Position numbers and translations under genes: made by a program. Under the pieces are notes generated by a model, which was not told the origin of the DNA, searched no databases, and saw only the letters and a program-made list of their open reading frames with translations. DNA of 64,000 bases from Anaerolineae bacterium (GTDB lineage Bacteria > Chloroflexota > Anaerolineae > S140-20): contig JALUTT010000170.1 in assembly GCA_027021705.1 (NCBI GenBank), forward strand, positions 2,429 to 66,428, given 5' to 3'. Shown here piece by piece: positions 18,653 through 62,782 of this stretch. Every line of letters begins with the position of its first letter. Within the stretch, counting starts at the first letter, position 1.

Positions 18653-18653
18653 C

Positions 18654-18800
18654 CTACGACTTTTCCTCCTCGACCAGGCTCTCCAACATCCGCAGCTCTT
18701 TCTCCAGGTTCTTCTGGCGTTGGATCAAGCTGAAGACGTAGAAGAAGGTGAATCCCCAGAAGATCAGATAGGCGACGACCAGGTATCCAAGGGTTCCCAT
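18654..18800 (-). CDS. ccmD: CcmD-like small membrane protein (haem exporter protein D)
   Basis: About 48 aa, MGTLGYLVVAYLIFWGFTFFYVFSLIQRQKNLEKELRMLESL... A single TM followed by a charged helix, which is the typical CcmD layout. Too short for the ORF track. Sits between ccmC and ccdA. Confidence 0.55.
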   Translation of the reverse strand: MGTLGYLVVAYLIFWGFTFFYVFSLIQRQKNLEKELRMLESLVEEEKS

Positions 18801-19020
18801 GGGGTTATCCTCCTTGCGTTGCAGGCCGGCATCGTTGCCACGCTCTGGAATTTAGACGCGGCATCCTTGCCAACCTTACTTCTTTTAGATGCAGAAAAGG
18901 CGACAAGGTTACATCGTTGGGATGCGGGTGAGGGCAAAGAAGTCCCCGGTTGCCTTTTGCAGCACCGGTGGGCATCCGCCCATCGGTGGTCTGTCCATCC
19001 GACAAGGCGGTCAGGCCGGC

Positions 19021-19722: not shown

Positions 19723-19761
19723 GGTTCCCTCCTGGGGTACGTGTTGCGTGGGACGTGTGGG

Positions 19762-21317: not shown

Positions 21318-21347
21318 GCTGGATGACGGAGCTTTGCCGACGGGCGG

Positions 21348-22052
21348 TCACCCCGACACCACCCGCTCATACACACCGGGGAAAGCGTGCGGGTCAATCT
21401 CGCTCCGGGGGGCCTGGTAGACAACCTTGCCCCGGTTCAGGATGACGACCCGATGGCAGCGGTTCAGCGCCCGCTCGATGTTGTGGGTGGTGAGCAGGAC
21501 AGTACGGCCGGCGGCGGCAACTTCCTGTAGGATCCCATCCAGGATGGCCGCTGCCCGCTGGTCTAGCCCTGTGTAGGGCTCGTCGAAGAAGACGAGGCGG
21601 GGTCGGTGCAGGACGGCCCGGGCGATGGCCAGCCGCTGTTGCATCCCCCGCGAGTAGGTGCGCACGGGGTCGTGCCGCCGCGCCGACAGATCCACCATGG
21701 TCAGCATCTCGTCAATCCGCGCGTCCAGCTCCGAATTGTCCAGGCCGTAGAGCCGACCGTAGAAGCGCAGGTTCTCCTCGGCTGTCAGGTGGGGGTAGAG
21801 CAGGGTCTGGTGGGAGATGAGGCCGATCTGACGCCGGACGGCCGGCCCTGCCTTTTGCACATCGTAGCCGGCCACCTGCACCACCCCGGCCGTCGGTTTG
21901 CTCAGCGTGGCCAGGATGCGTAGCAGCGTCGTCTTGCCCGCTCCATTCGGCCCCAGGATGGAGACGAACTCCCCCGGCTCCACGTCCAGGTTCACACCCC
22001 GCAGCGCTGTGTGGACGCCAAAGGCCTTGACCAGTCCCCGCACGTGGATCAT
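21348..22052 (-). CDS. ccmA: ABC transporter ATP-binding protein CcmA (haem exporter)
   Basis: Walker A GPNGAGKTTLLRIL. Signature and Walker B motifs present. Genomic context. Confidence 0.8.
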   Translation of the reverse strand: MIHVRGLVKAFGVHTALRGVNLDVEPGEFVSILGPNGAGKTTLLRILATLSKPTAGVVQVAGYDVQKAGPAVRRQIGLISHQTLLYPHLTAEENLRFYGRLYGLDNSELDARIDEMLTMVDLSARRHDPVRTYSRGMQQRLAIARAVLHRPRLVFFDEPYTGLDQRAAAILDGILQEVAAAGRTVLLTTHNIERALNRCHRVVILNRGKVVYQAPRSEIDPHAFPGVYERVVSG

Positions 22053-23887: not shown

Positions 23888-24065
23888 AGGCTATTCCCTT
23901 TCCTTGATGGCAAGCACGAATCCGATTTGCTTCTGGGGTCCCCTCAATGCTCAGGCTGGTGGCAGAAATGGGATGCCCTTGGTGCGAGACCTGCCAAGCC
24001 GGCATTGAGGTCAACGGAGGTTCGCTCCAAGAGGGGCTGCCTTTTCCGAATGGCCTCCTCCGGGC

Positions 24066-24651
24066 CTACTGGGCAGGCGCACCACAGCGGGCGCAGAACC
24101 GGTCATCGGAATCCAGAGGGGAGCCACACTGGGAGCAGACCGGCAGCGGGGTGCCACACCGGGAGCAGAAACGGTCTCCCGGATCCCCTCGATGCCCACA
24201 GGATGGGCAGGCAGGTCCCACCGCTGTTGACGTTTCGACGGTCGGCTCCCGGCCCCCGGAGGATGCCACAGCGGCGGGCTCCGCGACCGGCTGGCCGCGC
24301 TGGCGTCGCAGTGCGGCGACCTGCCGCTCGATCTCGGCCTCCAGCGCTGCCCGCCCATCTCCACCGGTCAGTTCATCAATGCGTTTCAGAATCTCCACCC
24401 CCTGGGCAACGTACTGATCCCGCAGGGGTTTGTAGTCCTCTTCGGCGATCTTGCCGGTCTGGTAGTCGAAATCCAGTTCCCGGATGGCTGTGTAGATCGC
24501 CTCACGCTGCTCGTACAGTTCCTTCAATGGGTTCTCGTCGTCGGTGAGGGGAGCGGGTTCATCGGAGGACTGGAAGAGGGGGCGGAGAATCCAGGCGACG
24601 GTCACCAGCAGCAAGCCGGCTCCAAAAAGCAGGGCTCCAAGGTTCATCGGT
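24066..24651 (-). CDS. single-pass membrane protein with a C-terminal double zinc-ribbon
   Basis: TM LGALLFGAGLLLVTVAWIL. C-terminal CPSCGHRG..FCSRCGTPL..CSQCGSPL..FCARCGAP. Start taken at MNLGALL (the long ORF extends to 24743). Confidence 0.5.
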
Positions 24652-24773
24652 GCGTATTCCGTATTCCGTATTTCGTGTTTCGCATTTCGTGCTTCGTATG
24701 CCGTCCCGCCCTTCACGCTTCCTGGGCTCGTTTGGCGTTTCACGTCTCACAGGCCGCGTGCTGCGGGGGGCGC

Positions 24774-25337
24774 TCACTGGGAGAGCAGGTCTCGGATGGC
24801 CTGATCCAGCTCGCCGGGCCTGAAGGGACCCACTTTGGTCAAGACGATGCGTCCCTCTCGATCTATGATGAAGGTCTCGGGAACGCCGGTGATGCGGTAG
24901 GCGTCAGAGATGCGGCTGCGCAGGTCTGGCCCGTTGGGGTAGGTGATGTTGAACTCCTCCAAGTAGGCCCGGGCCTTGCTCTCCGTGTCCACGTAGTCCA
25001 CACCCAGGACGACGACCCCCTGGTCCCGGTACTTGCGCCACACCATCTCCAGCTCCTCGGCCTCTCGTCGGCATTCGACACACCAGGAGGCCCAGAAGTT
25101 GACGACGACGATCCGTCCGCGCAGTTGGGAGAGGGTGACCTCGCCGCTGGTGAACTCGTTCTCGTAGCCGCTGAAAATGGGCAGCGTGAAGTCGGGGGCC
25201 AGGCCCGACTCCGGCCGGGTCTGGGACTGGCGGACGAGCCCCCAGCCCAGCAGGCCCAGCAGGGCGAAGGTAACGACCCAGACCAGCAGACGACCTACGC
25301 GCAGACCGGTTTTTGGCTGCACCGCTTCTTCTGCCAT
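24774..25337 (-). CDS. TlpA-like thioredoxin-fold thiol:disulfide oxidoreductase
   Basis: FWASWCVECRRE CxxC motif. N-terminal TM. Start taken at MAEEAVQ, since the longer ORF would overlap ccmH by 86 bp. Confidence 0.7.
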   Translation of the reverse strand: MAEEAVQPKTGLRVGRLLVWVVTFALLGLLGWGLVRQSQTRPESGLAPDFTLPIFSGYENEFTSGEVTLSQLRGRIVVVNFWASWCVECRREAEELEMVWRKYRDQGVVVLGVDYVDTESKARAYLEEFNITYPNGPDLRSRISDAYRITGVPETFIIDREGRIVLTKVGPFRPGELDQAIRDLLSQ

Positions 25338-25341
25338 CGCC

Positions 25342-25839
25342 TCACTCCCACTCACGCAGCTCCCGCTCCAGGCGGGCGACGTAATCTTCGGGTAGGTCGC
25401 TGCTGGCCCGTACCGGTGAAGGTTCAACGGGGATGGTCGCGGTAGCCACCGTCCGTCTCCCCATCCAGCGTCGGAAGAGTTGGATCATAATGCCGATGCC
25501 CGCCAGGGTCCCTACCACAGGCAGGATCCAGACCCAGAGGGCGAAACCTGCCTGGCGGGGGAGGGCCCGCACCCGGTCTCCATACCGCTCGGTAAAGTAG
25601 TTGATCACCTCTTGATCACTGTAACCAGCAGCCAGCAGTTCACCGATCTGCTCTCGCCAGTCAGCACAGGCTTGGGTCTCGCACACGTCCAGGGGGGTGT
25701 TCTCGCAGACGGGACAGTAGAGTTGCTTGGCCACACGGTTGATGTCGTCCTTGGTGACCTCGCCGCCTTGGGCATAGACGACGCCAACCAAGAGCAGGCT
25801 GATGAGCGCAAGCCCTATCCATAGCCACCATCTCTTCAT
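25342..25839 (-). CDS. ccmH: cytochrome c-type biogenesis protein CcmH/CycL-like
   Basis: Signal/TM, LYCPVCEN (LRCxxC-type) motif, and a second TM. Lies between ccmF and tlpA. Confidence 0.65.
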   Translation of the reverse strand: MKRWWLWIGLALISLLLVGVVYAQGGEVTKDDINRVAKQLYCPVCENTPLDVCETQACADWREQIGELLAAGYSDQEVINYFTERYGDRVRALPRQAGFALWVWILPVVGTLAGIGIMIQLFRRWMGRRTVATATIPVEPSPVRASSDLPEDYVARLERELREWE

Positions 25840-25886
25840 TGGGGTTACCTCCTCCAGAGGTCGGAGCCTCCGGTGATGCGCCCCTT

Positions 25887-27881
25887 CTAAACCTGTTGGG
25901 GTGCGATGGTCAGGCGCGGCATCACCATCCGTCGCTCCGCCTCAAAATCGGGCCAGCCGGCCACCAAAGTCCCTACCACGAAGATCAGCCCTCCTAGCCA
26001 CAGCCAGTTCACCAACGGGTTGATGTAGACGCGGAAGGTGGCTGTCGCTCCACCACTTTCCCAACCTGTCAGGAGCACGTAGACATCTTCGGCCATCGTG
26101 CTGCGCAAGGCCGGGATCGTCATCGTCTGCTGGGTGTTCTGATAGAACTCCCGCTTGGGGTGGACGGTCTTGAGCAGTTGGTCACCCTGGTAGATCTCCA
26201 CCGTGGCTTCGGTGACTATCAAGTCTCCGGGGCCTGGGTAGGTACGTAGCGTCCGATAGACGGTTCGGAAACCGCCGATCTCCAGCGATTCCCCAGGCCG
26301 CAAGGTCCCCTCGGTATCCTGCTGGAAGAACTCGGTGCCGATGATGCCCAGGGCCATGCAGACGACACCCAGGTGGACGATGTAGCCGCCGTAGCGCCGC
26401 CGATTCCGCCCGGCCAGCCGCCAAAAGGCCACCAGCCAAGGCTCCCCTCGGGCACGGCGCCGGGCGATCACGCCTCGGACGTACTCCCACAGGGTAGTGA
26501 CGCCCACGAAGGTCACGAGGAGGAAGCCCAGCAGTGCCCCCCAGGAGTGCACTCCCCGCAGGAAGAGGCCGATGACAACGACCACGGCGATCAGGAAGGG
26601 CCACCATAAGCTGCGTCCCAGCCGCTGGGCGGCCGTCTTCCGCCAGGCCATCAGCGGGGCGATGCCCATCAGGGCCAACAGCAGGGCGAACTGGGGTGCA
26701 GTCACTCGGTCGAACCATGGGGGACCGACGGTGATCTTCTCGCCCGTCACCAACTCAGAAACCATCGGCGAGATGGTGCCGATGAAGACCGAGAAGGTCA
26801 GGGTTATGAAGAGCATATTGTTGAGCAAAAAGGCCGCTTCCCGCGAGAGCAGGGCGTCCAGCCGGTTCTCCGACTTCAGATCGTCCAACCGCCGCAGCAA
26901 CGTGGCCACCGAGGCCACAGCCGTCACGGCGATGAAGGAGAAGAAGAGGGGGCCAACGGCTGACTGGGCAAAGGAGTGCACGGACGAGATAACGCCGCTA
27001 CGGGTGATGAAGGTGCCGAAGATCACCAATCCGTAGGTGAGAATGATCAACACCATATTCCAGACCTTCAGCATGCCCCGCTTCTCCTGAATCATCACCG
27101 AGTGCAAGAAGGCGGTGCCGGTCAGCCAGGGCATGAAGGCCGCGTTCTCCACCGGGTCCCAGGCCCAATAACCTCCCCAACCCAGCACGTCGTAGGCCCA
27201 TCGCCCGCCCAGCAGCAACCCCAAACTGAGGAAGAGCCAGGCTGCCAGCGTCCAGCGGCGGGTCACCCGGATCCAGTGGGGATCCGTGCGGCGGGTGACC
27301 AGGGCGGCCATAGCGAAGGCATAGGGGATGACGAACCCCACATAGCCTAGATAGAGCGTCGGCGGGTGAGCGACCATTCCCGGATGGCGCAGCAGCGGGT
27401 TCAGCCCTTGACCATCGGGAGGGATGAAGGAGAGCTTTTCGAAGGGGTTGGCCACAAAGGTGGTCAGGCCGACGAAGAAGACCAGGGTGCCTGCGGTCAC
27501 GAAGATGACGTGGGGCAGCAGCTCCCGGTCCTCATCCCACCGCCGAAGCATCACGATGAAGGTGAAGGAAGCCATCAGGAAGGACCAGAAGAGCAGCGAT
27601 CCGTTCTGCCCTCCCCACAAGGCGGTCACCTTCAGGAAGAGGGGCATATCCCGGCTGGAAGTGGTGGCGACGTATTTGAGCTGGAAGTCTCCCACCACCA
27701 GCGCGTAGATGAGAGTGAGGGAAGAGAGGCCGAGGAGGGGGGCCAAGGTCATCGTAGCGTGCCGGGCGCTGTTGACCCACCGCTCCTCTCCCTTGAAGAA
27801 GCCGTACAGGGAAGCGATGGTGGCGTAGACGGCCCCCACCAGAGCCGTCACCATCGCGAGGTAGCCTACGTCAGGAATCAT
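25887..27881 (-). CDS. ccmF: cytochrome c-type biogenesis haem lyase CcmF
   Basis: 664 aa polytopic protein. WWD domain GWGGYWAWDPVENAAFMPWL. Confidence 0.85.
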   Translation of the reverse strand: MIPDVGYLAMVTALVGAVYATIASLYGFFKGEERWVNSARHATMTLAPLLGLSSLTLIYALVVGDFQLKYVATTSSRDMPLFLKVTALWGGQNGSLLFWSFLMASFTFIVMLRRWDEDRELLPHVIFVTAGTLVFFVGLTTFVANPFEKLSFIPPDGQGLNPLLRHPGMVAHPPTLYLGYVGFVIPYAFAMAALVTRRTDPHWIRVTRRWTLAAWLFLSLGLLLGGRWAYDVLGWGGYWAWDPVENAAFMPWLTGTAFLHSVMIQEKRGMLKVWNMVLIILTYGLVIFGTFITRSGVISSVHSFAQSAVGPLFFSFIAVTAVASVATLLRRLDDLKSENRLDALLSREAAFLLNNMLFITLTFSVFIGTISPMVSELVTGEKITVGPPWFDRVTAPQFALLLALMGIAPLMAWRKTAAQRLGRSLWWPFLIAVVVVIGLFLRGVHSWGALLGFLLVTFVGVTTLWEYVRGVIARRRARGEPWLVAFWRLAGRNRRRYGGYIVHLGVVCMALGIIGTEFFQQDTEGTLRPGESLEIGGFRTVYRTLRTYPGPGDLIVTEATVEIYQGDQLLKTVHPKREFYQNTQQTMTIPALRSTMAEDVYVLLTGWESGGATATFRVYINPLVNWLWLGGLIFVVGTLVAGWPDFEAERRMVMPRLTIAPQQV

Positions 27882-27926
27882 TGGATCCTTCTCCTTAAGA
27901 TGTTGTCCCCCACAGCCTTCCCCGTC

Positions 27927-28451
27927 CTACCCTTTACTCTGGGAAGGTATATCTTCTTCGTAACGGGTCGGGCACTTCAGGAGCAGTTCGTCGGCGTAGA
28001 AGATCCCGTCTTCGCCGAGCTTGCCGGTGACGATCGCCTGGGCCTCGTGTTGCATCAAGTCCGGCTTGGGACCGTGATAGCGGACGGTGAGCCGAGGGAC
28101 CTGAGGATCGCTGACTGCCTGGCGGAGGACAACGGCCAACCCACCGGCGGCTTCGATCTCCTTGTTGGAACCCGGGACGTGCGCGATGGTGAACTCCAGA
28201 TCCAGGTTCTGGGCATCGTACACGATGGTGTCCCCGATGACCGCACCGGAGACGCGCACCTGGCGGCCCTGAAGCTCATCACGCCGGGCCAGGAGTTCTT
28301 CGACGGTGAGGAAGTACTCGGCGTGGGCCCCGAAGCTGCTGACGATGAGGTAGGCCACCGCTGCTAGGATGATCAGACCACCCACGTAGAATTTGGCCCG
28401 GGATCTGCCGGCGGTCTGGAGTTCAGTCTTGGGCACAGTCGCTTCCTGCAT
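27927..28451 (-). CDS. ccmE: haem chaperone CcmE, variant with CxxxY haem-binding motif
   Basis: N-terminal TM anchor plus an OB-fold core (VRVSGAV.GDTIVYD). The C-terminal KCPTRY replaces the canonical HxxxY. Confidence 0.7.
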   Translation of the reverse strand: MQEATVPKTELQTAGRSRAKFYVGGLIILAAVAYLIVSSFGAHAEYFLTVEELLARRDELQGRQVRVSGAVIGDTIVYDAQNLDLEFTIAHVPGSNKEIEAAGGLAVVLRQAVSDPQVPRLTVRYHGPKPDLMQHEAQAIVTGKLGEDGIFYADELLLKCPTRYEEDIPSQSKG

Positions 28452-45239: not shown

Positions 45240-45818
45240 GTGGACGAAACGGACCTGATTGCGCGTGCTGTCCAGGGGGACGAGGAGGCCCTGGCGGCTC
45301 TCTACAACCGTCACGCCCCAGCCCTCTACCGGCTGGCCTACGGCCTCTTGGGAGATGCGGAGGATGCCGAGGAGGTGGTCCAGGACGCCCTCGCCTACGC
45401 CCTGCGCCGGCTGGACCACTACGATCCCACTCGATCCGCCTTCACGACCTGGCTGCACACCATCACCGTCAGTCGCTGTCGGAACAAGCGCCGTCGCCGC
45501 TGGTTGCCCAGCCTGCGGCTCGCCGACTGGCTGGAGAGGGGCCGAGACCTGCCTGACCCCGATGCCGACCTGGAGGCCGTGGTAGTGGCCGACGAGGAGG
45601 CCCGCCAAGTCTGGGAAGCGGTGCAGCAACTCAGCCCCGTCGTGCGGGAAGTGGTCGTCCTCCGCTACTGGGGCGGTCACACCATCCCGGAGATCGCCCG
45701 CATCGTCGGCTGCCCGCCGGCCACCGCCCAATCCCGGCTGCGGCTGGCTCACGAGCAACTGCGCCGCCACCTGCACCCCCTTTCGACCTCTTGGAGCCCA
45801 GCGGAGGAGGCGGGATGA
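45240..45818 (+). CDS. ECF-type RNA polymerase sigma factor
   Basis: Sigma-70 region 2 (DAEDAEEVVQDALAYALRRLDHYD) and region 4 HTH (HTIPEIARIVGCPPATAQSRL). Start may be a GTG. Confidence 0.8.
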   Translation: MDETDLIARAVQGDEEALAALYNRHAPALYRLAYGLLGDAEDAEEVVQDALAYALRRLDHYDPTRSAFTTWLHTITVSRCRNKRRRRWLPSLRLADWLERGRDLPDPDADLEAVVVADEEARQVWEAVQQLSPVVREVVVLRYWGGHTIPEIARIVGCPPATAQSRLRLAHEQLRRHLHPLSTSWSPAEEAG

Positions 45819-48562
45819 AGAAGCACCTCACGGCCCAGCAACTCAGTGACCTGGCGGAGGGATTGGTCTCCCCTGATCACCGGGTCACCCTGGAGGCCCA
45901 CCTGGCTTCCTGCTCCCACTGTCGGGAGGCCCTGGCCGCCCACCAGGCCCTGGTCGAGCAGCTGCGCCGGGGGCTTCCCGCCTATCTGGAGCGGACTCCC
46001 TTGCCTCCCACCCTGCGCTGGGACACGGTGCGCCATCAGCTCCTGAAAGCTGCCTCCCCCAGGTTCGAACTTCAGAGGAGGATCGTGATGTGGAGACGAA
46101 TGCGCGCGGCTGTCGGTAGCCTCGTTGCCTTAACCTTGTTGCTGGGGATGATCCTCGTCCTGAGCGCCATCTTCCGCCCGATGAGCACCACCCTCGCACC
46201 CGGCGAGGAGGGCGCCCCTCCAGGAGCGGTGCTCGAAATGAGCGGCGTCCTGCCCTCTAGTGCGGGGCTCTTCGGTCCTCGATCCGTCACCTTCACAGTG
46301 CGGGCTGCACTGCCGACGGTGCCCGAGAGCGTCCCCCTCTACCGGATGGAGCCCGTCCTGCGGGAGATCACCCCCGACGTACTCCGCCTCTGGGCCGGTC
46401 GCCTGGGGATGGGACCGGTGCAGATCTACCGGGGCGATCTCCCAATGGCCGGGCCCAACAGCCTCACCGGCTTCGACGAAAGGTGGAGATCCCTCACCCT
46501 GGGCGCTGAGGGGACCTTGGTCTTCCAGCGACGCGGTTTCCGGTCGAGTGAGATGACGGGGCTGGCGACTCCTCCCCAAGAAGGGGTGGAAGAGTCCGAA
46601 GCCAGGAGGGTGGCGACCGCCTTCATCACGCCGTTGATCCCCTACTTGGTCACCGTGGAGGGGACGGACTCTCCCCCGTCCGTGGGCTTCTCCCTCACCC
46701 CGCGGGAGGATCTCTCTCCCGCCGACACAGGCGTGTGGGCCTATCAGGTCGAGATCACCTTGGATGGCGTCCCCTTCGCCTCTGAAGCCCCCGGAAACAT
46801 CGTGCTGGTGGGGGCGGATGGCGAGGTGATCACCGCCTTCCTCACCCCGGTTCGCCTCACCCCGGCCGGCAAGCAGGTCGCCCTGCGGCCCATCGAGGAG
46901 ACGCTGCAGGCTTTCCTGCAGGGCGATGCCTCACTGCTGGATGGCAGTAGTTGGCGCGAGAAGCTTCCCTCCGACGCCATGCCTCGTTTCTTCCAACGCC
47001 CCCTCTCCTTCCAAGAGGGAGAGAGGGTCGCCGTGAGCGGATGGGTCCAGCGGCTCTCAGGGGTGGAGGGTGCGCCAGACCTGGTGTTGCTCCACACTGT
47101 CACCAATGGGGGGACTTTCGTCCTGGAGGGAGGGGATCCAGCGCTTTCGTCGGAGAGCGGTCCGGTCCGGGTGGAGGGGACGGTGAGCCGTACCGACGTC
47201 CCTGACGTGTGGCGACTCCGGGTGGAGCGGGTGATGCCGATGGCACCCGAGGAGAAGGGCAGTTGGGATGGGGTGGTGGAGCGGCGGGAAGACGGCCTCT
47301 GGTTGAAGACCTTGGAGGGGCAGCAGTTCCGCCTGCCCGATCCACCGGAAGGGCTGCCCGACGGTGCCCGGGTGTCGGTGATGGGGATGCCGGCCCTGGA
47401 TGACCCCCAGCGTCTGGAGTGGAGCCTCATTGTCCTCCTGCCCGAGGCGGAACTTCCGCCAAGGCGGGCGGTGCAGGTGGAAGCGCCCCCTCCCCCGCCT
47501 CCGCCGTCCCTGCCCACGCCGGCCCCCCTTCCGACGGCCATGGCTACGGAGACCCTCGAAGGGCCGGTGGTCAGCGCTCCTGTCTCCCCCACCGCGCCGC
47601 TGGCGCCATCGCCGGTGGCAGTCCAATCCAGCGAGGTCGTCGTCGTGCCGGTGGTTCCCCTGGCCCCCGGAGCCCCCTCTCCGGAGCCTCCCCCGTGGTG
47701 GGAGCACCAGCCGGGCGACGTGGTGACAGTGGTGGGGCTCCTATCTGTGAACGGCTTTCGCGAACCCGACGGTACCATCCAGGCCTGGGCCAACCTGACC
47801 ATCGAAGGTCCCACGGAGGATGTTCCGAACTTCTTCCTGCCCCTGGCGGGCGAGGACCTGGAGGCCCTAGCCCCTTGGGATGGGCTACACGTGCGGGTGC
47901 GGGGACAAATCCTCACCGAGGAGGAGGCCACGGAGAAGTTGGGCGAGCCCATCCCCGGCTCCGCTGGTCAAGTCCTCTGGATCGAGGAGGCCGAGCCGGC
48001 GTGGCCGGAGGAGACGAAGGACGTCTACACCGGCCCGCTGCGCATCGAGGAGGTGGAGGGCCGAGAGGTGGCCCTGCTGGAGGACACGCTCACTGGCCAG
48101 ACCTTTGCCCTGGCCGGCGGGGAAGGCGACTTGGACCTCTACCGCCGCTACGCAGGGCTGGAGGAGCCCATCGCCATCATCGGCATCCGGGTCCCTCAAG
48201 AGCAGGTAGGAGGCTACCCGGTCCTGCGGATGGCGCGGCTGGGCACCGGCGAGGGGGCGGTGGAGGACCTGCGGCGGCGGTTGACCGATCCATTCGGTCC
48301 ACCCATACCGGCGCCGTCCGGCCCCACCGAGGTGATCATCGAAGAAGTGAAGCTGGCCTACATAGTGCAGAGATTTCATCCAGATCCCTCCAGGGAAGGG
48401 GAACCGGTGGCCTTGCTCACCAAGCCCTTCTACCTCCTCATTGGCCGCTCCCCTGATGGACGGTATCGGGTGACGGTCCGGCTGCGGGCGACGGAGGAGG
48501 CCATTCCTTCGGAAACGCCATCGGTCTTCTTCCTGACGCCCACCACGGTCCCTGGGCCGTAG
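45815..48562 (+). CDS. anti-sigma factor (zf-HC2 N-terminus, single TM, very large extracytoplasmic domain, Pro-rich linker)
   Basis: HLASCSHCREALAAH zinc-finger-like anti-sigma motif. TM AVGSLVALTLLLGMILVLSAIF. ATG overlaps the sigma factor stop (ATGA). Confidence 0.65.
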   Translation: MKKHLTAQQLSDLAEGLVSPDHRVTLEAHLASCSHCREALAAHQALVEQLRRGLPAYLERTPLPPTLRWDTVRHQLLKAASPRFELQRRIVMWRRMRAAVGSLVALTLLLGMILVLSAIFRPMSTTLAPGEEGAPPGAVLEMSGVLPSSAGLFGPRSVTFTVRAALPTVPESVPLYRMEPVLREITPDVLRLWAGRLGMGPVQIYRGDLPMAGPNSLTGFDERWRSLTLGAEGTLVFQRRGFRSSEMTGLATPPQEGVEESEARRVATAFITPLIPYLVTVEGTDSPPSVGFSLTPREDLSPADTGVWAYQVEITLDGVPFASEAPGNIVLVGADGEVITAFLTPVRLTPAGKQVALRPIEETLQAFLQGDASLLDGSSWREKLPSDAMPRFFQRPLSFQEGERVAVSGWVQRLSGVEGAPDLVLLHTVTNGGTFVLEGGDPALSSESGPVRVEGTVSRTDVPDVWRLRVERVMPMAPEEKGSWDGVVERREDGLWLKTLEGQQFRLPDPPEGLPDGARVSVMGMPALDDPQRLEWSLIVLLPEAELPPRRAVQVEAPPPPPPPSLPTPAPLPTAMATETLEGPVVSAPVSPTAPLAPSPVAVQSSEVVVVPVVPLAPGAPSPEPPPWWEHQPGDVVTVVGLLSVNGFREPDGTIQAWANLTIEGPTEDVPNFFLPLAGEDLEALAPWDGLHVRVRGQILTEEEATEKLGEPIPGSAGQVLWIEEAEPAWPEETKDVYTGPLRIEEVEGREVALLEDTLTGQTFALAGGEGDLDLYRRYAGLEEPIAIIGIRVPQEQVGGYPVLRMARLGTGEGAVEDLRRRLTDPFGPPIPAPSGPTEVIIEEVKLAYIVQRFHPDPSREGEPVALLTKPFYLLIGRSPDGRYRVTVRLRATEEAIPSETPSVFFLTPTTVPGP

Positions 48563-54049: not shown

Positions 54050-54086
54050 GTGACATCCATCACAATGCAGTGGTGACATCCCTCAC
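54050..54086 (+). promoter_or_regulatory. two tandem CRP/FNR-family boxes (GTGACATCCATCAC and GTGACATCCCTCAC) at class-II position relative to a TATACT -10
   Basis: GTGA-N6-TCAC at 54050-54063 and 54073-54086. tatact at 54110-54115. No -35 at proper spacing. Confidence 0.55.
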
Positions 54087-54167
54087 TATCCCTTGGTCCG
54101 GCTATCCTCTATACTGGGCCTTGAGGCGCCACCCCAGGCCCGTTACCTGTAGCAGGAGGAGCGTGTT

Positions 54168-55412
54168 ATGAGACGTCAGGGGCTGTTCATCCTTGGGGCG
54201 TTGTTGTTGATGGCGCTCCTGGTCGTAGCCTGTGCCGGCCCTCAGGGACCCGAGGGACCGCCCGGTCCGGCAGGACCGCCGGGGCCGGAAGGGCCTCAGG
54301 GTCCTCCAGGCCCCCAAGGCCCTCCAGGGCCTCAAGGACCGCCAGGGCCACAGGGACCACCAGGAGAGGCCGCCGCTGCCGAATACGTCGGGAGCGACGT
54401 TTGCGCTTCGTGCCATGAGGAGATTTATGATGTCTTTATAAAGTCGGGCCACGCCTGGAAGCTGAATCCGGTCGTGGACGGCAAGCCCCCGGAGTACCCC
54501 TTCACCGAGGTCCCAGAGCCGCCGGAAGGCTACACCTGGGATGACATCGCTTACGTCATCGGGGGCTACAACTGGAAAGCCCGGTTTATTGACAAAAACG
54601 GTTACATCATCACCGGCCCCGACGAGAATGCCACGACCCAGTACAACTTCGCCAATCCCGAGGTGGGCAAGGAGGCCGGCTGGGTGGCCTACCATCCCGG
54701 CCAGGAGAAGCCCTACAATTGCGGGCCCTGCCACACCACCGGTTACAAGCCGGAGGGCCACCAGGACGGCCTGGAAGGGATCGTCGGCACCTGGGCGGAG
54801 CCGGGCATCAAGTGCGAGCGGTGCCATGGCCCAGGCAGCCTGCACGTTGCCAACCCCTATACCGTGCGCATGGTCGTGGACCGCGATTCCGAGCAGTGTG
54901 GTGAATGCCATCTGCGGGGCTCGCCCGAAGCGGTCAACGCCAAAGGTGGCTTCATCCAGCACCACGAGCAATACGAGGAGCTCTTCCAGAGCAAGCATAT
55001 CACCCTGCGGTGCGTGATCTGCCACGACCCCCACGCCGGAGTGGTGCAACTGCGCAAAGCGGGCGAGCAGACCACACGCACCCAGTGTGAGAACTGTCAC
55101 TTCCAGGAGGCCAAGTACCAGAACTCCGAGGTACACAAGGCCGTGGGGGTGACCTGTATTGACTGCCATATGCCGCGCATCGTCAAGAGTGCCTGGGGAG
55201 ACGCCGAGAAGTTCACGGGGGACATCCGCACCCATATGATGGCCATTGACCCGGATCAGATCGAGCAGTTCACCGAAGATGGCAAGACGGCGCTGTCGCA
55301 GATCGGGCTGAACTTCGCCTGCCGCCATTGCCACGTCGAAGGGGGGAAGGCGACCCCGAAGACCGACGATGAACTGCGCGAGAGGGCAACAGGCTATCAC
55401 GCCCGGCCTTAG
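54168..55412 (+). CDS. octahaem c-type cytochrome lipoprotein with N-terminal collagen-like (Gly-Pro-X)15 tether
   Basis: Lipobox LLVVAC. 15 consecutive G-P-X triplets. Eight CxxCH motifs (CASCH, CGPCH, CERCH, CGECH, CVICH, CENCH, CIDCH, CRHCH). Confidence 0.8.
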
Positions 55413-55526
55413 ACCGACCGATCCGGATCGTTGCCAAGAGCACGTCTGCGGGCCGGGGACTGCCTCCCGGCCCGCATTCCCATCTGGGCTCGCCGTCCAG
55501 CAGCGCAGGATAGTGGGTGGATAACA

Positions 55527-56639
55527 ATGAAGCGGTTTGCCGTGCTCCCAGGTCTGGTGGGGCTGGTTCTGGTGAGCCTCGCCCTCGTAGCCGCCCCCAC
55601 AGCGGCTCAGCCGGCCCGGCCCACCCCGTCGGTCCCGAATGTGGGTGATGAGACCTGCCTGGCCTGTCACGACACACCGGGGTTGCAGATCACGCTCCCC
55701 TCGGGTGAGCCCCTCTACCTGACCGTGGACCGGGTGATCTACAAGACCTCGACCCACGGGCGGCTGGGCTATGCCTGCGTCCAGTGCCACACGGATATTG
55801 GCGAGTTCCCTCATCCGCCCCTACAGGTGACCAGCCGGCGGGAATTCACGTTGAAGCTGTACCGGTCCTGTGCTCGGTGCCACGAGGACAAGTACGAGGC
55901 CACCCTGGACAGCGTTCACCAGGCTGCCCTGGCTGCAGGCCACCCGGAGGCTGCCGTCTGCACCGACTGTCACGGGGCCCACAACATCGGGCCACCGGAC
56001 AAACCGCGCAGCCACATCTCCCGAACCTGCCGCCGTTGCCATTCCCAGATCTATGACCTGTATGAGAAGAGCGTCCACGGCGCGGCGCTGATTGACGAAG
56101 GGAACCCTGATGTCCCCTCTTGCACCGACTGTCACGGGGTGCACAGCGTCGAAGGGCCCTCCACCAGCCCGTTTCGCCTCTTCTCACCACAGATCTGTGC
56201 CCGCTGCCACGCCGATCCGAAGCTGATGGGGCGCTATGGCATCAGTACCGACGTCTTCGACACCTACGTCGCCGACTTCCACGGCACCACCGTCATCCTC
56301 TTCGAGGCCATTGCCCCGGATCAGGAGACCAACAAGCCGGTCTGCATTGACTGTCATGGCGTGCACGACATCCAGACGACGGACGATCCGGAGAGCCGGG
56401 TCATTAAGGAAAACCTGCTTGCCACCTGCCGGAAGTGCCATCCTGATGCCACGGCCAACTTCCCTACCGCCTGGCTCAGCCACTACCGGCCCAGTCCCGA
56501 GCACGCACCGCTGGTCTACTTCGTCAACCTGTTCTACGAGATCCTGATCCCCACGGTGATCGGGGCAATGGTGATCTTCAACGCTACCGACATCTACCGA
56601 CGGGTTGTCTGCCGCCTTCGGGAGCGCCGCCATGGGTGA
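55527..56639 (+). CDS. nonahaem c-type cytochrome with signal peptide and C-terminal TM anchor
   Basis: Nine CxxCH motifs. Signal MKRFAVLPGLVGLVLVSLALVAAP. C-terminal hydrophobic helix ILIPTVIGAMVIF. Confidence 0.75.
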   Translation: MKRFAVLPGLVGLVLVSLALVAAPTAAQPARPTPSVPNVGDETCLACHDTPGLQITLPSGEPLYLTVDRVIYKTSTHGRLGYACVQCHTDIGEFPHPPLQVTSRREFTLKLYRSCARCHEDKYEATLDSVHQAALAAGHPEAAVCTDCHGAHNIGPPDKPRSHISRTCRRCHSQIYDLYEKSVHGAALIDEGNPDVPSCTDCHGVHSVEGPSTSPFRLFSPQICARCHADPKLMGRYGISTDVFDTYVADFHGTTVILFEAIAPDQETNKPVCIDCHGVHDIQTTDDPESRVIKENLLATCRKCHPDATANFPTAWLSHYRPSPEHAPLVYFVNLFYEILIPTVIGAMVIFNATDIYRRVVCRLRERRHG

Positions 56640-57786
56640 GGTTCGTAAGTACCTGCGTTTCCCCCTCTCCTACCGCCTCGAGCACGGGCTGCTTATGCTC
56701 AGCTTCACGGTCCTGGCCATCACCGGCCTGGTCCAGAAGTACGCCGGCACCGGCCTTGCCGAAGGGGTCGTGGCCTTGATGGGGGGCATCGAGCGCGTGC
56801 GCATCACGCATCGGGTCGCCGCCATCGTCCTGATGATCGAGACGGTCTACCACGTGGGGGCTGTGGGCTATCGCCTCTTCGTACACCGCGCCCGCCCCAC
56901 AATCCTCCTGACGTTGGACGATGGGCGCATCGCGCTCCAAATGCTGCTGTACAACCTAGGCCTGCGGAAGGAACGCCCCCTTCAAGGTCGCTACACAGTA
57001 GAAGAGAAGATCGAGTACTGGGCCGTGGTCTGGGGAACGCTGATTATGGCGGTCACAGGGTTTATGATGTGGAACCCCATCGCCACCACACGCCTCTTGC
57101 CTGGGGAGTTCGTCCCGGCGGCCAAGGCGGCCCACGGCAACGAAGCCCTTCTGGCCGTGCTGGCCATCCTCGTCTGGCACGTCTACCACGTGCACCTCCG
57201 CCACTTCAACAAGAGCATCTTCACCGGCTACCTCACCGAAGAGGAGATGCGGGAAGAGCATCCCCTGGAGCTGACCACGGTGGAGACGAGGGCCGCTGTG
57301 GAGAGCCCCAGGGTACTGGCCCGGAGGCGCTGGGCCTTCTTCTCCATCTACGGCACGCTGGCAGCCGCCATGTTGGTGGGCATCTACCTCTTCGTCACTT
57401 TCGAGGAGACGGCCATCACGACGGTACCGCCGCCGGAACAGGTGGTGATCTACGCACCGCTGACGCCGACGCCTCTGCCGACGCCGTTGCCTACCCCCAC
57501 GCCGCTGCCTCAAGTGGCCGCCTCCTGGAAGGGGGGGGTGGCCATGCTGCTCCAGGAGCGGTGTGGCAACTGCCACAACAGCACGGCCAGGTTGGGTGGC
57601 CTGGACCTCAGCAGCTACGAAGGAGTCCTGGTGGGCGGTGCCAGCGGCCCGGTCATCGTTCCGGGTGATCCCGCAGCCAGCCTGCTGGTGGTCCGGCAGG
57701 CGGCGGGGGACCATCCTGGCCAGCTCAGTGGTGAAGAGCTGGCCCTGATCCGCCAGTGGATTCAGGCGGGTGCACCAGAACAGTGA
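56632..57786 (+). CDS. membrane b-type cytochrome (cytochrome b561 / hydrogenase-cytb-like 4-5 TM) fused to C-terminal PSCyt1-type c-haem domain
   Basis: Conserved His in TM helices (HRVAAIV..., HGNEALLAV..WHVYHVH). C-terminal CGNCH...GGLDLSSYEGVLVGGASGPVIVPGDPAASLLV. 8-bp overlap with the upstream gene. Confidence 0.65.
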   Translation: MGEVRKYLRFPLSYRLEHGLLMLSFTVLAITGLVQKYAGTGLAEGVVALMGGIERVRITHRVAAIVLMIETVYHVGAVGYRLFVHRARPTILLTLDDGRIALQMLLYNLGLRKERPLQGRYTVEEKIEYWAVVWGTLIMAVTGFMMWNPIATTRLLPGEFVPAAKAAHGNEALLAVLAILVWHVYHVHLRHFNKSIFTGYLTEEEMREEHPLELTTVETRAAVESPRVLARRRWAFFSIYGTLAAAMLVGIYLFVTFEETAITTVPPPEQVVIYAPLTPTPLPTPLPTPTPLPQVAASWKGGVAMLLQERCGNCHNSTARLGGLDLSSYEGVLVGGASGPVIVPGDPAASLLVVRQAAGDHPGQLSGEELALIRQWIQAGAPEQ

Positions 57787-57822
57787 GGGCGATGGGGAGT
57801 CGAGGACGAGAGGAGAAGGACG

Positions 57823-59520
57823 ATGGGTCGTATCCGGCAGGTGTTACGCAGCCTCTTCTTCCCCCCGCCAGGGACCCGGCTATGGCGGTGGCTATTGCCC
57901 TACGCCATCCTGGGCGTGATGACCCTGGTGGTGCTGATCCTCGGCGCGTATAGCTGGGAGTACACCAACTCTCCGGAGTTCTGTGGCACAGCCTGCCACA
58001 CCATGCCTCCCGAGTACACCGCCTACCTGGTCTCACCCCACGCCCGGGTGAAGTGCGTCGAGTGCCACATCGGACGCAGCTTCATCGCCACCCAGATTTC
58101 ACGCAAGGCTGGGGACATTGAGCACATCGTCTCCTTGGCTTTCCGGCGCTACGAGTTCCCCATCTACGTCAGGACGATGCGGCCGGCGCGGGAGAGCTGC
58201 GAACGCTGTCACTACCCGGAGAAGTTCTCCGACGACAGCCTGCGCGAGATCAAGCGCTTCCGCGACGACCGGGACAACACGCCCTACAGCATCTACCTCA
58301 CGCTGAAGACGGGCGGTGGCAGCAAGCGCCAAGGACTGGGAAGGGGCATCCACTGGCACATCGAGAACCCCGTCTACTACCTGGCCCTGGACCCCGATGA
58401 GCAGGTGATCCCCTACGTGCGGGTGGTGGGCGACGATGGGTCCGTCACCGAGTATGTGGATGTCGAGGCCGACATCAACCCGGCGGAGATAGACCCGGCC
58501 GACCTGAAGGAGATGGACTGCATCACTTGTCACAACCGCATCACCCACCTGATCCGCCCGCCTGACGATATTGTAGACCAACTGATGGCGCGCCGAGTGA
58601 TCTCGCCGGAGATCCCGGAGATCCACCGCAAGGCCGTCGAGGCGCTCAGCACCCGTTACGACTCCATCGAGATAGCGATGAACGCCATTGCTGGCCTGAT
58701 GGGCTACTATCAGACCTACTACCCGGATTTCTACGCGGCCAACCGGGATCAGATTGAGGCGGCCATTGCGGCCCTGCAGGAGGCCTACCGACAGAGCGTC
58801 TTCCCGGAGCAGAAGGCCGATTGGACCACCCACGTCAACGAGATTGGTCACAAGTACTCACCCGGCTGTTTCCGTTGCCACGACGGCAAGCACTTGAACG
58901 CGCAACAAGAGGCCATCCGGCTGGAGTGCAACCTCTGTCACTCGATCCCCGTGGTGGTCGGCCCCAACGACTTCGTCGCCAGGATCGAGATCAGTCGGGG
59001 GCCGGAGCCTAAGTCCCACCTGCACGCCAACTGGATTGGCCTGCACCGCGACATCTTCGACGACACCTGCGCCAACTGCCATACCACCGAGGACCCCGGA
59101 GGGACCAGCAACGTCTCCTTCTGCTCCAACAGCGCCTGTCACGGTACGGTGTGGGAGTACGCTGGCCTGGATGCGCCGGAACTGCGCAAGATCCTGGCCC
59201 AGCAGATCCCCCAGATTGCCCCGACCCCGACCCCCATCCCCGAAGGCATCGCCCTTACCTACGCCGATACCATCGGGCCGCTGCTCCGGGACCGCTGTGG
59301 CACCTGCCACGGGGAGAAGGGGATCCAGGGGCTCAACCTGACCACCTACGAAGGGCTGCTGAAGGGTGGGGCCGGCGGGCCAGCCATCGTGCCCGGCGAC
59401 CCGGACAAGAGCTTGCTCGTTCAGGAGCAGCGGGGGGAGCAACCCCACTTCGGTCAGCTGACCGACCAAGAGCTGGAATTGGTCATCCAATGGATCGAGG
59501 CTGGTGCACCGAAGGACTAA
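57823..59520 (+). CDS. NapC/NirT/NrfH-like membrane-anchored multihaem cytochrome c with C-terminal PSCyt1 domain
   Basis: N-terminal TM plus CGTACH / CVECH tetrahaem quinol-dehydrogenase-like arrangement. Further CxxCH motifs (CERCH, CITCH, CFRCH, CNLCH, CANCH). C-terminal CGTCHGEKGIQGLNLTTYEGLLKGGAGGPAIVPGDPDKSLLV. Confidence 0.7.
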   Translation: MGRIRQVLRSLFFPPPGTRLWRWLLPYAILGVMTLVVLILGAYSWEYTNSPEFCGTACHTMPPEYTAYLVSPHARVKCVECHIGRSFIATQISRKAGDIEHIVSLAFRRYEFPIYVRTMRPARESCERCHYPEKFSDDSLREIKRFRDDRDNTPYSIYLTLKTGGGSKRQGLGRGIHWHIENPVYYLALDPDEQVIPYVRVVGDDGSVTEYVDVEADINPAEIDPADLKEMDCITCHNRITHLIRPPDDIVDQLMARRVISPEIPEIHRKAVEALSTRYDSIEIAMNAIAGLMGYYQTYYPDFYAANRDQIEAAIAALQEAYRQSVFPEQKADWTTHVNEIGHKYSPGCFRCHDGKHLNAQQEAIRLECNLCHSIPVVVGPNDFVARIEISRGPEPKSHLHANWIGLHRDIFDDTCANCHTTEDPGGTSNVSFCSNSACHGTVWEYAGLDAPELRKILAQQIPQIAPTPTPIPEGIALTYADTIGPLLRDRCGTCHGEKGIQGLNLTTYEGLLKGGAGGPAIVPGDPDKSLLVQEQRGEQPHFGQLTDQELELVIQWIEAGAPKD

Positions 59521-59549: not shown

Positions 59550-59587
59550 GGACCGGGCACCGGAGGGTGCCCGGTCCCTCTTTTGGG
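59550..59587 (+). terminator. rho-independent terminator of the cytochrome operon
   Basis: ggaccgggcacc-ggag-ggtgcccggtcc followed by ctcttttgg. Confidence 0.7.
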
Positions 59588-59737: not shown

Positions 59738-59766
59738 TTGACAACTTCGACCTCATGGACTACAAT
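59738..59766 (+). promoter_or_regulatory. consensus sigma-70 promoter of the tRNA cluster (TTGACA-17-TACAAT) with an upstream A/T-rich tract
   Basis: ttgaca at 59738-59743, a 17-nt spacer, then tacaat at 59761-59766. tRNA-Phe begins at 59779. Confidence 0.7.
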
Positions 59767-59778
59767 TAAGGGCGAAGC

Positions 59779-59852
59779 GCCGAGGTAGCTCAGCCTGGTA
59801 GAGCACTTGACTGAAAATCAAGGAGTCCCCAGTTCAAATCTGGGCCTCGGCA
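59779..59852 (+). tRNA. tRNA-Phe (GAA)
   Basis: Manual cloverleaf folding. Acceptor GCCGAGG/CCTCGGC. Anticodon loop CTGAAAA. T-loop GGTTCAAATCC. Confidence 0.8.
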
Positions 59853-59860
59853 TTGTGCCA

Positions 59861-59934
<74 letters not shown>

Positions 59935-59957
59935 TGATCTCCCTCCGGGGAGCCACT

Positions 59958-60028
59958 GGCGGCGTCGCCAAGGGGTAAGGCAAGGGTCTGCAAAACCCTC
60001 ATCGCCGGTTCGAATCCGGCCGCCGCCT
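59958..60028 (+). tRNA. tRNA-Cys (GCA)
   Basis: Acceptor GGCGGCG/CGCCGCC. Anticodon loop CTGCAAA. T-loop GGTTCGAATCC. Confidence 0.8.
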
Positions 60029-60093
60029 CTGAGGGAATGCAACGGGAGGGGTCAAGGCCGGTAGCGATTTGCTATCGGCTTTCGTTGTTGTGT

Positions 60094-60175
60094 GGGGCGG
60101 TGGCGGAACGGTAGACGCATCGGTCTTAAAAACCGAGGGGCTCGGCCCGTGTGGGTTCGAATCCCACCCGCCCTA
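60094..60175 (+). tRNA. tRNA-Leu (TAA), long variable arm
   Basis: D-arm TGGCGGAACGGTAGACGC. Anticodon loop CTTAAAA. Variable arm GGGGCTCGGCCCGTG. T-loop GGTTCGAATCC. The 5' end is approximate. Confidence 0.7.
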
Positions 60176-60284
60176 CTTCCCCCGCTCCTCTTGCGAGGCC
60201 CTCCCCTTGTGACCCGCCCTCCCTCAAACCAAGTGGAACTGGCAAGGGCAACCGACCGGGGTTGCCTTTGCTTTAGGAGGCAAC

Positions 60285-61885: not shown

Positions 61886-62782
61886 ATGGGCAACAACGGA
61901 CGCGGAAGAGGCTCAATGGAACTGCGGGGGTTGATGCCCACGCCAGAGGAGCGTTGGGCCTTGATGCGCAGTTACTTGGAGCTGGGGGAGAGCGACCTGG
62001 AGGCTATGGCTGCAACGGTGGAGCCTCTCTTTCGACGCGGGCCCGACCTGGTGAAGGAGAACTATGACTACCTGGCCCGCTTCCCGGAGACGGCGGCGGT
62101 GCTGGGCTGGGAGGACGGCATTGACGAAGAGCACCTGGAGGAACGACGTCGCTTCTTCACCATCTGGCTGGCTCGGTTGCTGGGGCTGGACCTGAGCGAC
62201 GATATGGCCCGTTACATGTTCTACGCCGGTAAGGTCCACGCCGGCCACGGCCCCCGCCGCATCCACGTCCCCGACATCTTCGTCACCGGGGCCGTCAGCC
62301 GGGTGCAGGCCGACTTCGCCGCCACCATCCAGGCCCACATCTCCGACGCCGGTCTGATCGCCCGAGCCCTGGCCGGCTGGAACAAAGTGCTGACCATGCA
62401 CCTGGACATGATGCTGATGGGCTACCAAGTGGCGCGGGCGGTGGATGAAGGCCCCAACCCGGTGCGGGTTACCCTCTTCGGACGGTTGCGCTCCCTCGTC
62501 GGCCGCCAGGAGATGGTCATCCGCACCGGCCCGAACGCCCGGGTGGCCGACGTGCTACGCAAGTTCTTCAACTACTACCCGGAGGCCCGCCACGAGGCCC
62601 TAGAGGCCCATCCCGAGCCCCTGGAGGAAGGAGAGTCGCTCTGGCTGGAGCTGACGGAAGTCTACGTGCCCCGCAAGTCGTGGCGGGTGCTGCGCAACGG
62701 GCGCGACCTGAACTACAACGGCGGTTTTGAGGCCCCCGTCGAGGCGGGAGATGAAGTCGCCCTCTTCCCACCAGGACGCTGA
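61886..62782 (+). CDS. protoglobin-domain protein fused to a C-terminal MoaD/ThiS-like beta-grasp domain
   Basis: N-terminal roughly 190 aa match the protoglobin pattern (ENYDYLARFPETAAVLGWEDG...ERRRRFFTIWL...YMFYAGKVHAGHG). C-terminal VRVTLFGRLR...VLRNGRDL...AGDEVALFPPGR is MoaD-like but lacks the terminal GG. Confidence 0.5.
   Translation: MGNNGRGRGSMELRGLMPTPEERWALMRSYLELGESDLEAMAATVEPLFRRGPDLVKENYDYLARFPETAAVLGWEDGIDEEHLEERRRFFTIWLARLLGLDLSDDMARYMFYAGKVHAGHGPRRIHVPDIFVTGAVSRVQADFAATIQAHISDAGLIARALAGWNKVLTMHLDMMLMGYQVARAVDEGPNPVRVTLFGRLRSLVGRQEMVIRTGPNARVADVLRKFFNYYPEARHEALEAHPEPLEEGESLWLELTEVYVPRKSWRVLRNGRDLNYNGGFEAPVEAGDEVALFPPGR

Follow-up and report, generated by a model that had tools for sequence, protein, structure and literature searches.

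The DNA studied here, called the window below, is a stretch of 64,000 nucleotides (nt) from an Anaerolineae bacterium of the phylum Chloroflexota. At positions 54168-59520 it carries four consecutive genes, A to D, which probably encode a multihaem chain that takes electrons from menaquinol to the cell surface, presumably in a monoderm envelope. The best explanation treats the four genes as one operon, in which D and the pair B-C would deal with the quinol pool and A, a lipoprotein with a conserved collagen-like stalk, would face the outside. The genes and the domains on which the argument turns are as follows.

54168-55412, forward strand: gene A, octahaem c-type cytochrome lipoprotein, 414 amino acids (aa)
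54237-54371, forward strand: collagen-like (Gly-X-Y)15 stalk of A, residues 24-68, Pfam Collagen
55527-56639, forward strand: gene B, nonahaem c-type cytochrome, 370 aa
56632-57786, forward strand: gene C, FdnI/HydC-type cytochrome b with a PSCyt1 domain, 384 aa
about 57562-57783, forward strand: PSCyt1 domain of C, PF07635, E 5.5e-10, 40.1 bits against a cut-off of 22
57823-59520, forward strand: gene D, ImcH-family NapC/NirT-type quinol:cytochrome oxidoreductase (predicted), 565 aa
about 59260-59517, forward strand: PSCyt1 domain of D, PF07635, E 1.2e-7, 32.7 bits against a cut-off of 22

The four open reading frames (ORFs) are co-oriented and all show the GC3 (G+C at third codon positions) typical of coding DNA. 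A and B are separated by 114 nt, B and C overlap by 8 nt, and C and D lie 36 nt apart. The starts of B (ATG 55527) and C (ATG 56632) were taken from the public gene call on the metagenome contig ERZ27262676, where identical DNA is present. Across A-D there are 25 CxxCH motifs in about 1730 residues, which is far above chance. An earlier note on this DNA, made from the sequence without database searches, had described the ORFs with 8 + 9 + at least 7 such motifs and a five-helix cytochrome b, and this observation was confirmed; profile searches also returned the Pfam families it had named (Collagen, Ni_hydr_CYTB, Cytochrom_NNT and two PSCyt1 domains). To its count of more than 24 haems a CX3CH and a CX4CH site of D have to be added. 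With these two sites the predicted total comes to about 27 c-type haem sites, and 2 b haems are expected for C.

Gene A begins with a signal peptide and lipobox (54168-54233, VVAC), the lipid-bearing residue being Cys22. The haem domain (54372-55409) comprises 346 residues with 8 CxxCH. More than 2,400 homologues of A were found. All eight motifs are kept in 113 of the 120 closest relatives and in 116 of 119 members of a second subfamily (Ardenticatenaceae/Promineifilaceae type, heads 45-50% identical), and the lipobox is kept in 113 of the closest 120. Residues 57-255 match OcwA of Thermincola potens (PDB 6I5B; phmmer E 3e-19, profile E 8e-20), and when a model of A of moderate confidence was compared with the PDB by Foldseek, OcwA, OmhA and MccA were the only significant matches (prob 1.00, query TM-score, TMq, about 0.5). 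No helix longer than 10 residues is seen in that model, and so no long C-terminal three-helix bundle is visible. The 17 Cys of A are the 16 of the CxxCH motifs and the lipid Cys; since none is left over, an MccA-like Cu site is impossible. A conserved His pair (His265/266) is present. By sequence and model A is assigned to the c554/MccA/OcwA/OmhA clade, with OcwA and OmhA as its best relatives, and the lipobox and stalk alone suggest an extracytoplasmic, membrane-distal location. OcwA and OmhA (Carboxydothermus ferrireducens, PDB 6QVM) are surface terminal reductases of monoderm metal reducers.

The stalk consists of 14 Gly-Pro-X triplets followed by GEA, with a single Ala between Cys22 and the first Gly. 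The 15 uninterrupted triplets claimed earlier are thus real, but not all of them are Gly-Pro-X and the run does not start directly at the lipid Cys. Pfam Collagen (PF01391) scores 33.3 bits on A against a cut-off of 27.2. Absence of this region from orthologues, which would have told against the proposal, was looked for, and conservation was found instead: about 230 of 239 family members carry the stalk, with 7-27 triplets when the two subfamilies are pooled. Among the 120 closest relatives 112 have 9-27 uninterrupted Gly-X-Y triplets, mostly starting 0-4 residues past the Cys, the second subfamily has 7-10 triplets (118 of 119), and the run is present in 19 of 20 orthologues taken from species genomes. 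Position X in the stalks of the closest relatives is occupied mostly by Pro, position Y by Ala, Glu, Pro or Gln. Among orthologues the stalk sequence drifts while Gly stays fixed at every third position; such periodicity kept despite drift is what one would expect under selection for a triple helix, and not under low-complexity drift. The collagen triple helix rises 0.286 nm per residue, and the 45 residues would span about 13 nm if a triple helix is formed. Exceptions are rare, namely 16-haem tandem-duplicated forms (3 of 120) and a few forms with an Ala/Pro linker. The duplicated variants without a stalk are P0123, P0126 and P0158 (716, 714 and 724 aa), one Zixibacteria metagenome-assembled genome (MAG) being among their sources; two other variants of A, P0504 and P0518 (509 aa), have an additional C-terminal class-I cytochrome c domain.

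Gene D encodes a protein with one N-terminal transmembrane helix (TMH; residues 24-42) and 7 CxxCH. A CX3CH motif (CGTACH) at residue 54, 12 residues past the TMH, and a CX4CH motif (CSNSACH) at residue 434 are invariant in 26 homologues, and D therefore probably binds 9 haems. Cytochrom_NNT (PF03264, NapC/NirT) is matched at residues 28-102 with E 1.8e-9, and the N-terminus matches NrfH (TIGR03153, E 1.6e-16; structure 2j7a_C, E 3.4e-9). ImcH of Geobacter sulfurreducens is an inner-membrane heptahaem menaquinol oxidase serving high-potential acceptors. It is defined by NapC/NirT homology, a CX3CH first motif next to the membrane helices and seven haems; its homologues have a CX3CH followed by typical CX2CH motifs, 5-9 in number. 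The motifs of D stand at 54/78/126/233/349/369/416 and those of ImcH (GSU3259) at 132/156/205/311/428/448/486 (Table S3 of Zhong & Shi, PMC6295460), which gives spacings of 24/48/107/116/20/47 and 24/49/106/117/20/38 respectively. An exhaustive HMMER search gave many three-TMH proteins, about 500 aa in length, that have a CX3CH plus 5-6 CxxCH at the ImcH positions; D is 35-42% identical to them (E 1e-65 to 1e-85). Because the GSU3259 accession is absent from the 90% clusters of ImcH-like representatives, the assignment of D as an ImcH-family quinol oxidoreductase rests on motif layout and on similarity to proteins of ImcH architecture. The same 2018 table lists as an 'ImcH homolog' a 374-aa, one-TMH protein of Anaerolinea thermophila (motifs 52/75/124/231/347/367, TMH 21-43; PMC6295460), and this protein is equivalent to D without its last third. 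More than 5,400 homologues of D occur in a 90%-clustered database, the best 120 being all full-length and 63-90% identical, and 535 clusters at 50% identity are matched at E<1e-30. Relatives were found in at least 595 species-level genomes, the closest named ones being Anaerolineae and Anaerolineales MAGs.

The product of gene B has a cleavable signal peptide, 9 CxxCH, a C-terminal TMH at residues 332-350 and then a basic tail. In C, five hydrophobic helices are followed by a Pro/Thr-rich linker and a PSCyt1 domain with one CxxCH. The membrane part of C matches Ni_hydr_CYTB (PF01292) at E 1.5e-12, TIGR01583 at E 5e-11 and FdnI (1kqf_C) at E 1.4e-3; TM1, TM2 and TM4 contain His residues, and the b domain is assigned to the FdnI/HydC family, of predicted dihaem-b type. 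The known systems with which the pair can be compared are CbcL and CbcBA of Geobacter, cytochrome bc-type menaquinol oxidoreductases for low-potential acceptors. CbcL (GSU0274) has nine haem motifs followed by six TMHs at 285, 351, 399, 477, 511 and 589; CbcBA (GSU0593-0594) is made of two polypeptides, with a c subunit, the 7-haem CbcA, anchored by a C-terminal helix. The first TMH follows the last haem motif after 31 residues in B and after 28 in CbcL, and the helices of C lie at relative positions 0/46/112/155/223, those of CbcL TMH2-6 at 0/48/126/160/238. B and C can be described as a split CbcL/CbcBA-type architecture, likened by layout and not by sequence.

The two PSCyt1 modules, each with its CxxCH at the start, are 54% identical over 82 residues, and this sharing between C and D suggests a common partner. 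The domains lack Met and contain a single conserved His (H542 in D, invariant in the 26 homologues; H361 in C), for which reason their haem is probably bis-His and of low potential. FdnI-type subunits have both termini in the cytoplasm. A fifth TMH in C places its PSCyt1 domain outside, where haem attachment occurs. The PSCyt1 domain of D also resembles a FoxE domain (E 4e-7).

Gene linkage was counted in the 44 genome loci whose flanks extend for 6 kb or more to either side of D. B and C occur together near D in 28 of them, A in 8, and A, B and C in 5. B and C are adjacent in all 28 full-flank loci that carry them and never apart. A adjoins D or B-C in 16 of 16 A-bearing genome loci, and four of four further A homologues, picked independently by the length of their contigs alone, are directly followed by D (3) or by B-C (1). 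The exact order A-B-C-D recurs in three loci (L013, L019, L024). The co-conservation of all four genes expected earlier therefore holds in so far as B-C is always paired and A always stands beside D or B-C, but the order A-B-C-D is one of several. It can be said that the system is a modular toolkit, of which the window shows one compact arrangement. Other neighbours of D are HisKA_3-type kinases (20 of 44 loci) and NrfD-type genes (21 of 44), and larger islands also include ccm genes, a bc complex, a two-component system and another B-C pair.

Some features of these relatives deserve a mention in their own right. A complex of Rieske, cytochrome b and multi-cytochrome-c proteins is encoded directly downstream of D and B-C or between them (L083 11865-15171; L046 7215-10522; L004 from 12059; L011 from 11765). 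Many relatives have, beside D, a triad that the window lacks (L084 1-1403; L085 13885-16847; L087 11183-14148; L088 11205-14150; L014 2530-5592). Its members are a multihaem cytochrome of about 310 aa resembling c554, an NrfC-like 4Fe-4S protein and a membrane protein of NrfD type, and it may be a third quinone-interacting module of the toolkit. In larger clusters a conserved ORF of 65-66 aa overlaps the start of the first B-like gene (L083 4966-5163, L084 1527-1727); the 114-nt A-B spacer of the window has no counterpart.

Beyond the assignments, topology, conservation and linkage given above, we infer an electron order, a triple helix with its trimer, a monoderm envelope, an acceptor and a direction of flow. 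D and B+C would be two alternative quinol oxidoreductases which exchange electrons with the menaquinone pool. Their PSCyt1 domains, held on Pro-rich linkers at the outer membrane face, would act as tethered mobile carriers, a putative stand-in for the soluble periplasmic cytochromes of diderms. They would hand electrons on to A and would be natural carriers in a cell without a free pool of periplasmic cytochromes. Lipid-anchored A would hold its compact octahaem head away from the membrane by means of the stalk, and a triple helix in the stalk would make A a trimer with 24 haems. The head may then serve as terminal oxidoreductase for acceptors without access to the membrane, for example Fe/Mn oxides, humics, electrodes or partner cells.

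The biology of the group is in keeping with such a chain. Chloroflexota are generally regarded as monoderm, and Anaerolineales have genomes rich in multihaem cytochromes, porin-cytochrome complexes not being reported; this fits a wall-spanning stalk rather than an outer-membrane porin. Ardenticatena, also presumed monoderm, performs extracellular electron transfer, in A. maritima both anodic and cathodic. The A. maritima protein ARMA_0580 (430 aa, 7 CXXCH) migrates at 74 kDa, although 48 kDa is predicted, and immunostaining has located it at the surface. With an Ardenticatenaceae homologue of A as query no match named for A. maritima was returned, and a tie between A and ARMA_0580 is a possible lead. 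The window itself contains a complete System I Ccm cluster (17717-28451, reverse strand, about 26 kb upstream) with CcdA/DsbD_TM, CcmC, CcmB, CcmA, thioredoxin-like CcmG, CcmF and CcmE, and ccm genes adjoin the cytochrome cluster in two relatives (L083, L085).

A number of points speak against the proposed chain. None of A, B and C is found near D in 13 of the 44 loci, and in 13 of the 44 Rieske/cytochrome b genes are, which could link D to aerobic or high-potential chains or to inward flow. The likeness of B and C to CbcL and CbcBA is one of layout. The stalk, with 15 triplets, is hydroxyproline-free, and its triple helix and trimer are predicted only. The model of A has a predicted local distance difference test score (pLDDT) of 65 and a predicted TM-score (pTM) of 0.60, and the AlphaFold2 model of D, made with 26 homologues, is unusable (mean pLDDT 53.6, haem regions below 50). 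Between the head of A and membrane-bound B or D there would be a gap of about 13 nm for electrons to bridge. Finally, OcwA itself reduces nitrite and hydroxylamine as well. A more far-reaching version of the proposal is put forward tentatively, with more doubt than conviction: that the conserved (Gly-X-Y)7-27 run is a genuine triple helix which trimerises A to a 24-haem head and forms a tunable semi-rigid spacer of about 6-23 nm through the monoderm wall, that the PSCyt1 domains of the ImcH- and CbcL-type oxidases shuttle to this head, and that this undescribed solution to wall crossing is the main electron-export route of Anaerolineae.

Other explanations of the same genes have to be weighed. 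An Nrf-type reductase of soluble substrates appears unlikely: here A would reduce or detoxify nitrite, hydroxylamine, NO, sulfite or tetrathionate, with D as its quinol dehydrogenase in the manner of NrfH and B-C as an independent second quinol module. The A-D pair recurs and resembles nrfHA, NrfH is the closest match of the N-terminus of D, members of the c554/MccA/OcwA/OmhA clade have in vitro N-oxide activity, and His265/266 recalls the distal His pairs described for OcwA. However, A has neither CXXCK nor CX15CH nor a spare Cys that would permit an MccA-like Cu site, none of the NCBIfam models for Nrf, Otr and Mcc comes anywhere near its cut-off, in structure A is closest to two surface metal reductases, and a stalk of about 13 nm is hard to square with a tight membrane complex of the NrfH-NrfA type.

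It is also quite unlikely that the flow is reversed, with electrons from Fe(II), minerals, cathodes or partner cells being taken up into the quinone pool or into a Rieske/cytochrome b complex. CbcL/MtoC-type proteins are found both in reducers and in Fe(II) oxidisers, and the FoxE-like PSCyt1 domain of D, the Rieske/cytochrome b neighbours in 13 of the 44 loci and the cathodic activity of A. maritima point the same way; ImcH homologues, on the other hand, have been reported so far from reducers only, the window holds no Rieske/cytochrome b genes, and the probable bis-His ligation of the PSCyt1 haems suggests low potentials, which suit outward flow. Little weight is given to the idea that there is no single unit, and that A+D and B+C are independent modules of separate pathways clustered by chance in a 'cytochrome island'. 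The synteny is modular, D standing alone in 13 of 44 loci, A-D occurring without B-C and B-C with or without A, and additional modules (the cytochrome-NrfC-NrfD triad, a second B-C pair, two-component regulators) are frequent, yet in the window all four genes point the same way, are spaced by 114, -8 and 36 nt and have only one strong terminator, which follows D; their order recurs in three loci, and a PSCyt1 module is common to C and D (54% identity). Export of electrons from menaquinol to the surface by one operon remains the preferred reading, and the earlier suggestion of a quinol-linked multihaem electron-transfer module is supported.

The following signals surround the operon.

54050-54089, forward strand: two 17-nt direct repeats GTGACATCC(A/C)TCAC(A/T)AT, starting at 54050 and 54073, 23 nt apart
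54110-54115, forward strand: -10-like hexamer TATACT, putative
59550-59587, forward strand: intrinsic terminator-like hairpin (59550-59577; 12 bp, 10 of them G-C) with T-rich tail, operon end

The terminator had been placed at 59550 by the earlier note, and the hairpin and T-run bear this out. The promoter it had put at about 54110 fared worse: the -10-like hexamer is there, but a scan for consensus two-hexamer sigma-70 promoters upstream of A gave no match near it. The same scan found a near-consensus promoter (TTGACA-17-TACAAT, 59738-59766) for the separately promoted tRNA cluster Phe-Gly-Cys-Leu that lies downstream of the terminator (59738-60176, forward strand), which means that sigma-70-like promoters are recognisable in this organism. 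The direct repeats sit just upstream of TATACT and are a possible binding site for a regulator, for example a response regulator; HisKA_3/GerE two-component genes are found directly upstream of an A homologue in relatives. A scan of the window at Rfam gathering thresholds returned the four tRNAs and nothing else.

Several other genes of the window are worth recording. Within the ccm cluster, a 295-aa ORF (20430-21317, reverse strand) with a PLD-like nuclease domain and a DpnI C-terminal helix-turn-helix lies between ccmB and ccmA, overlaps the start of ccmB and looks like a restriction-type nuclease inserted in the ccm operon, and a 612-aa protein with two class-I cytochrome c domains (22049-23887, reverse strand) is encoded directly upstream of ccmA. 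A 298-aa protein (61886-62782, forward strand) is, by Pfam, a fusion of protoglobin with a ThiS/MoaD-like ubiquitin fold, an unusual combination for a sensor or carrier. Two long forward-strand ORFs are a 1367-aa one (6907-11010) with no Pfam match at E<=1e-5 and a 923-aa one (45791-48562) whose sole match, to DUF5818, is weak.

In sediments, aquifers, anaerobic digesters and anode biofilms Anaerolineae rank with the most abundant bacteria. Extracellular or interspecies electron transfer has long been suspected in them, with no defined pathway. The operon is a concrete and widely conserved candidate for their electron-export chain, and it is directly testable since each step has a characterised analogue in Geobacter or Thermincola. 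If the stalk is a true triple helix, it would be a new way to set redox proteins at a defined distance from the membrane, of interest for envelope biology and for the design of bioelectronic proteins.

Some known systems could be set aside as identities of the operon. NrfA/NrfHA was rejected, as A-D contain no CXXCK and the models score 13.7 against 595 bits (NrfA, NF008339) and 60.6 against 134 (NrfH), and MccA was rejected because A lacks the CX15CH haem 8 and the Cu-binding cysteines. An ACIII/NrfCD module was rejected, there being no iron-sulfur (NrfC/ActB) or NrfD-like subunit among the four genes; a tblastn search of the window with an NrfD-family query found nothing. Nap/Tor was excluded by the lack of a molybdoenzyme in the operon or the window, and an Mtr/Pcc porin-cytochrome conduit by the gene content, which is four cytochrome genes and no beta-barrel porin gene. 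The earlier view that the module is no canonical Nrf, Nap or ACIII was thus upheld. To call it undescribed and built of different parts was an overstatement in view of the ImcH family of D, the CbcL/CbcBA layout of B+C and the OcwA/OmhA clade of A.

With ImcH, D has in common the NapC/NirT N-terminus, the CX3CH right after the last TMH and a near-identical spacing of the first seven motifs. It differs in having one TMH instead of three (as do the homologues of Anaerolinea thermophila and Intrasporangium calvum; PMC6295460), in the additional CX4CH haem site, in the C-terminal monohaem PSCyt1 domain on a Pro-rich linker, and in being operon-linked to a lipoprotein cytochrome, whereas imcH is monocistronic. 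The arrangement of NapC/NirT-type D beside multihaem A, a member of the wider NrfA/c554/MccA superfamily, recalls NrfH-NrfA, but D has 9 haem sites and NrfH 4. B and C together resemble CbcL in their 9 outside c-haem motifs, FdnI/HydC-type dihaem b part and 1+5 = 6 similarly spaced TMHs, and CbcBA in being two polypeptides with a C-terminally anchored c subunit. Unlike the single fused polypeptide of CbcL they are encoded by two genes overlapping by 8 nt, and the first five haem motifs are wider-spaced in B; B has 9 haems against 7 in CbcA, and the last TMH of C is followed by a PSCyt1 domain, which sets it apart from both systems.

As to A, the N-terminal c554-like tetrahaem module and the beta-sheet insert of OcwA align with it at E about 1e-19, OcwA and OmhA are its best fold matches, and its predicted position is likewise the outer face of a monoderm envelope. 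Its 8 haems in 346 residues make it smaller than OcwA (9 in about 484) and OmhA (11 in about 658), and it is a lipoprotein with a collagen-like stalk, neither feature being mentioned for OcwA in the accessible part of its description. With the bacterial collagen-like proteins Scl1/Scl2, BclA and Lcl the stalk shares uninterrupted Gly-X-Y with Pro-rich X and a Pfam Collagen match above threshold; the Scl/Lcl NCBIfam models match A weakly, and BclA gives a weak PDB profile match. The stalk of A, with 7-27 triplets in the family, is far shorter than theirs, its N-terminus is lipid-anchored, and its head is a multihaem cytochrome, where theirs is an adhesin or exosporium domain. In the literature searched, no collagen-like repeats combined with a multihaem cytochrome were found. 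None of the four proteins founds a new family, and the logic and most of the parts are those of the inner-membrane systems of Geobacter and the surface system of Thermincola; three things appear to be new, a multihaem lipoprotein with a conserved collagen-like stalk, the linker-tethered PSCyt1 extension on both quinol modules, and the bringing together of ImcH-, CbcL- and OcwA-type components in one operon of Chloroflexota.

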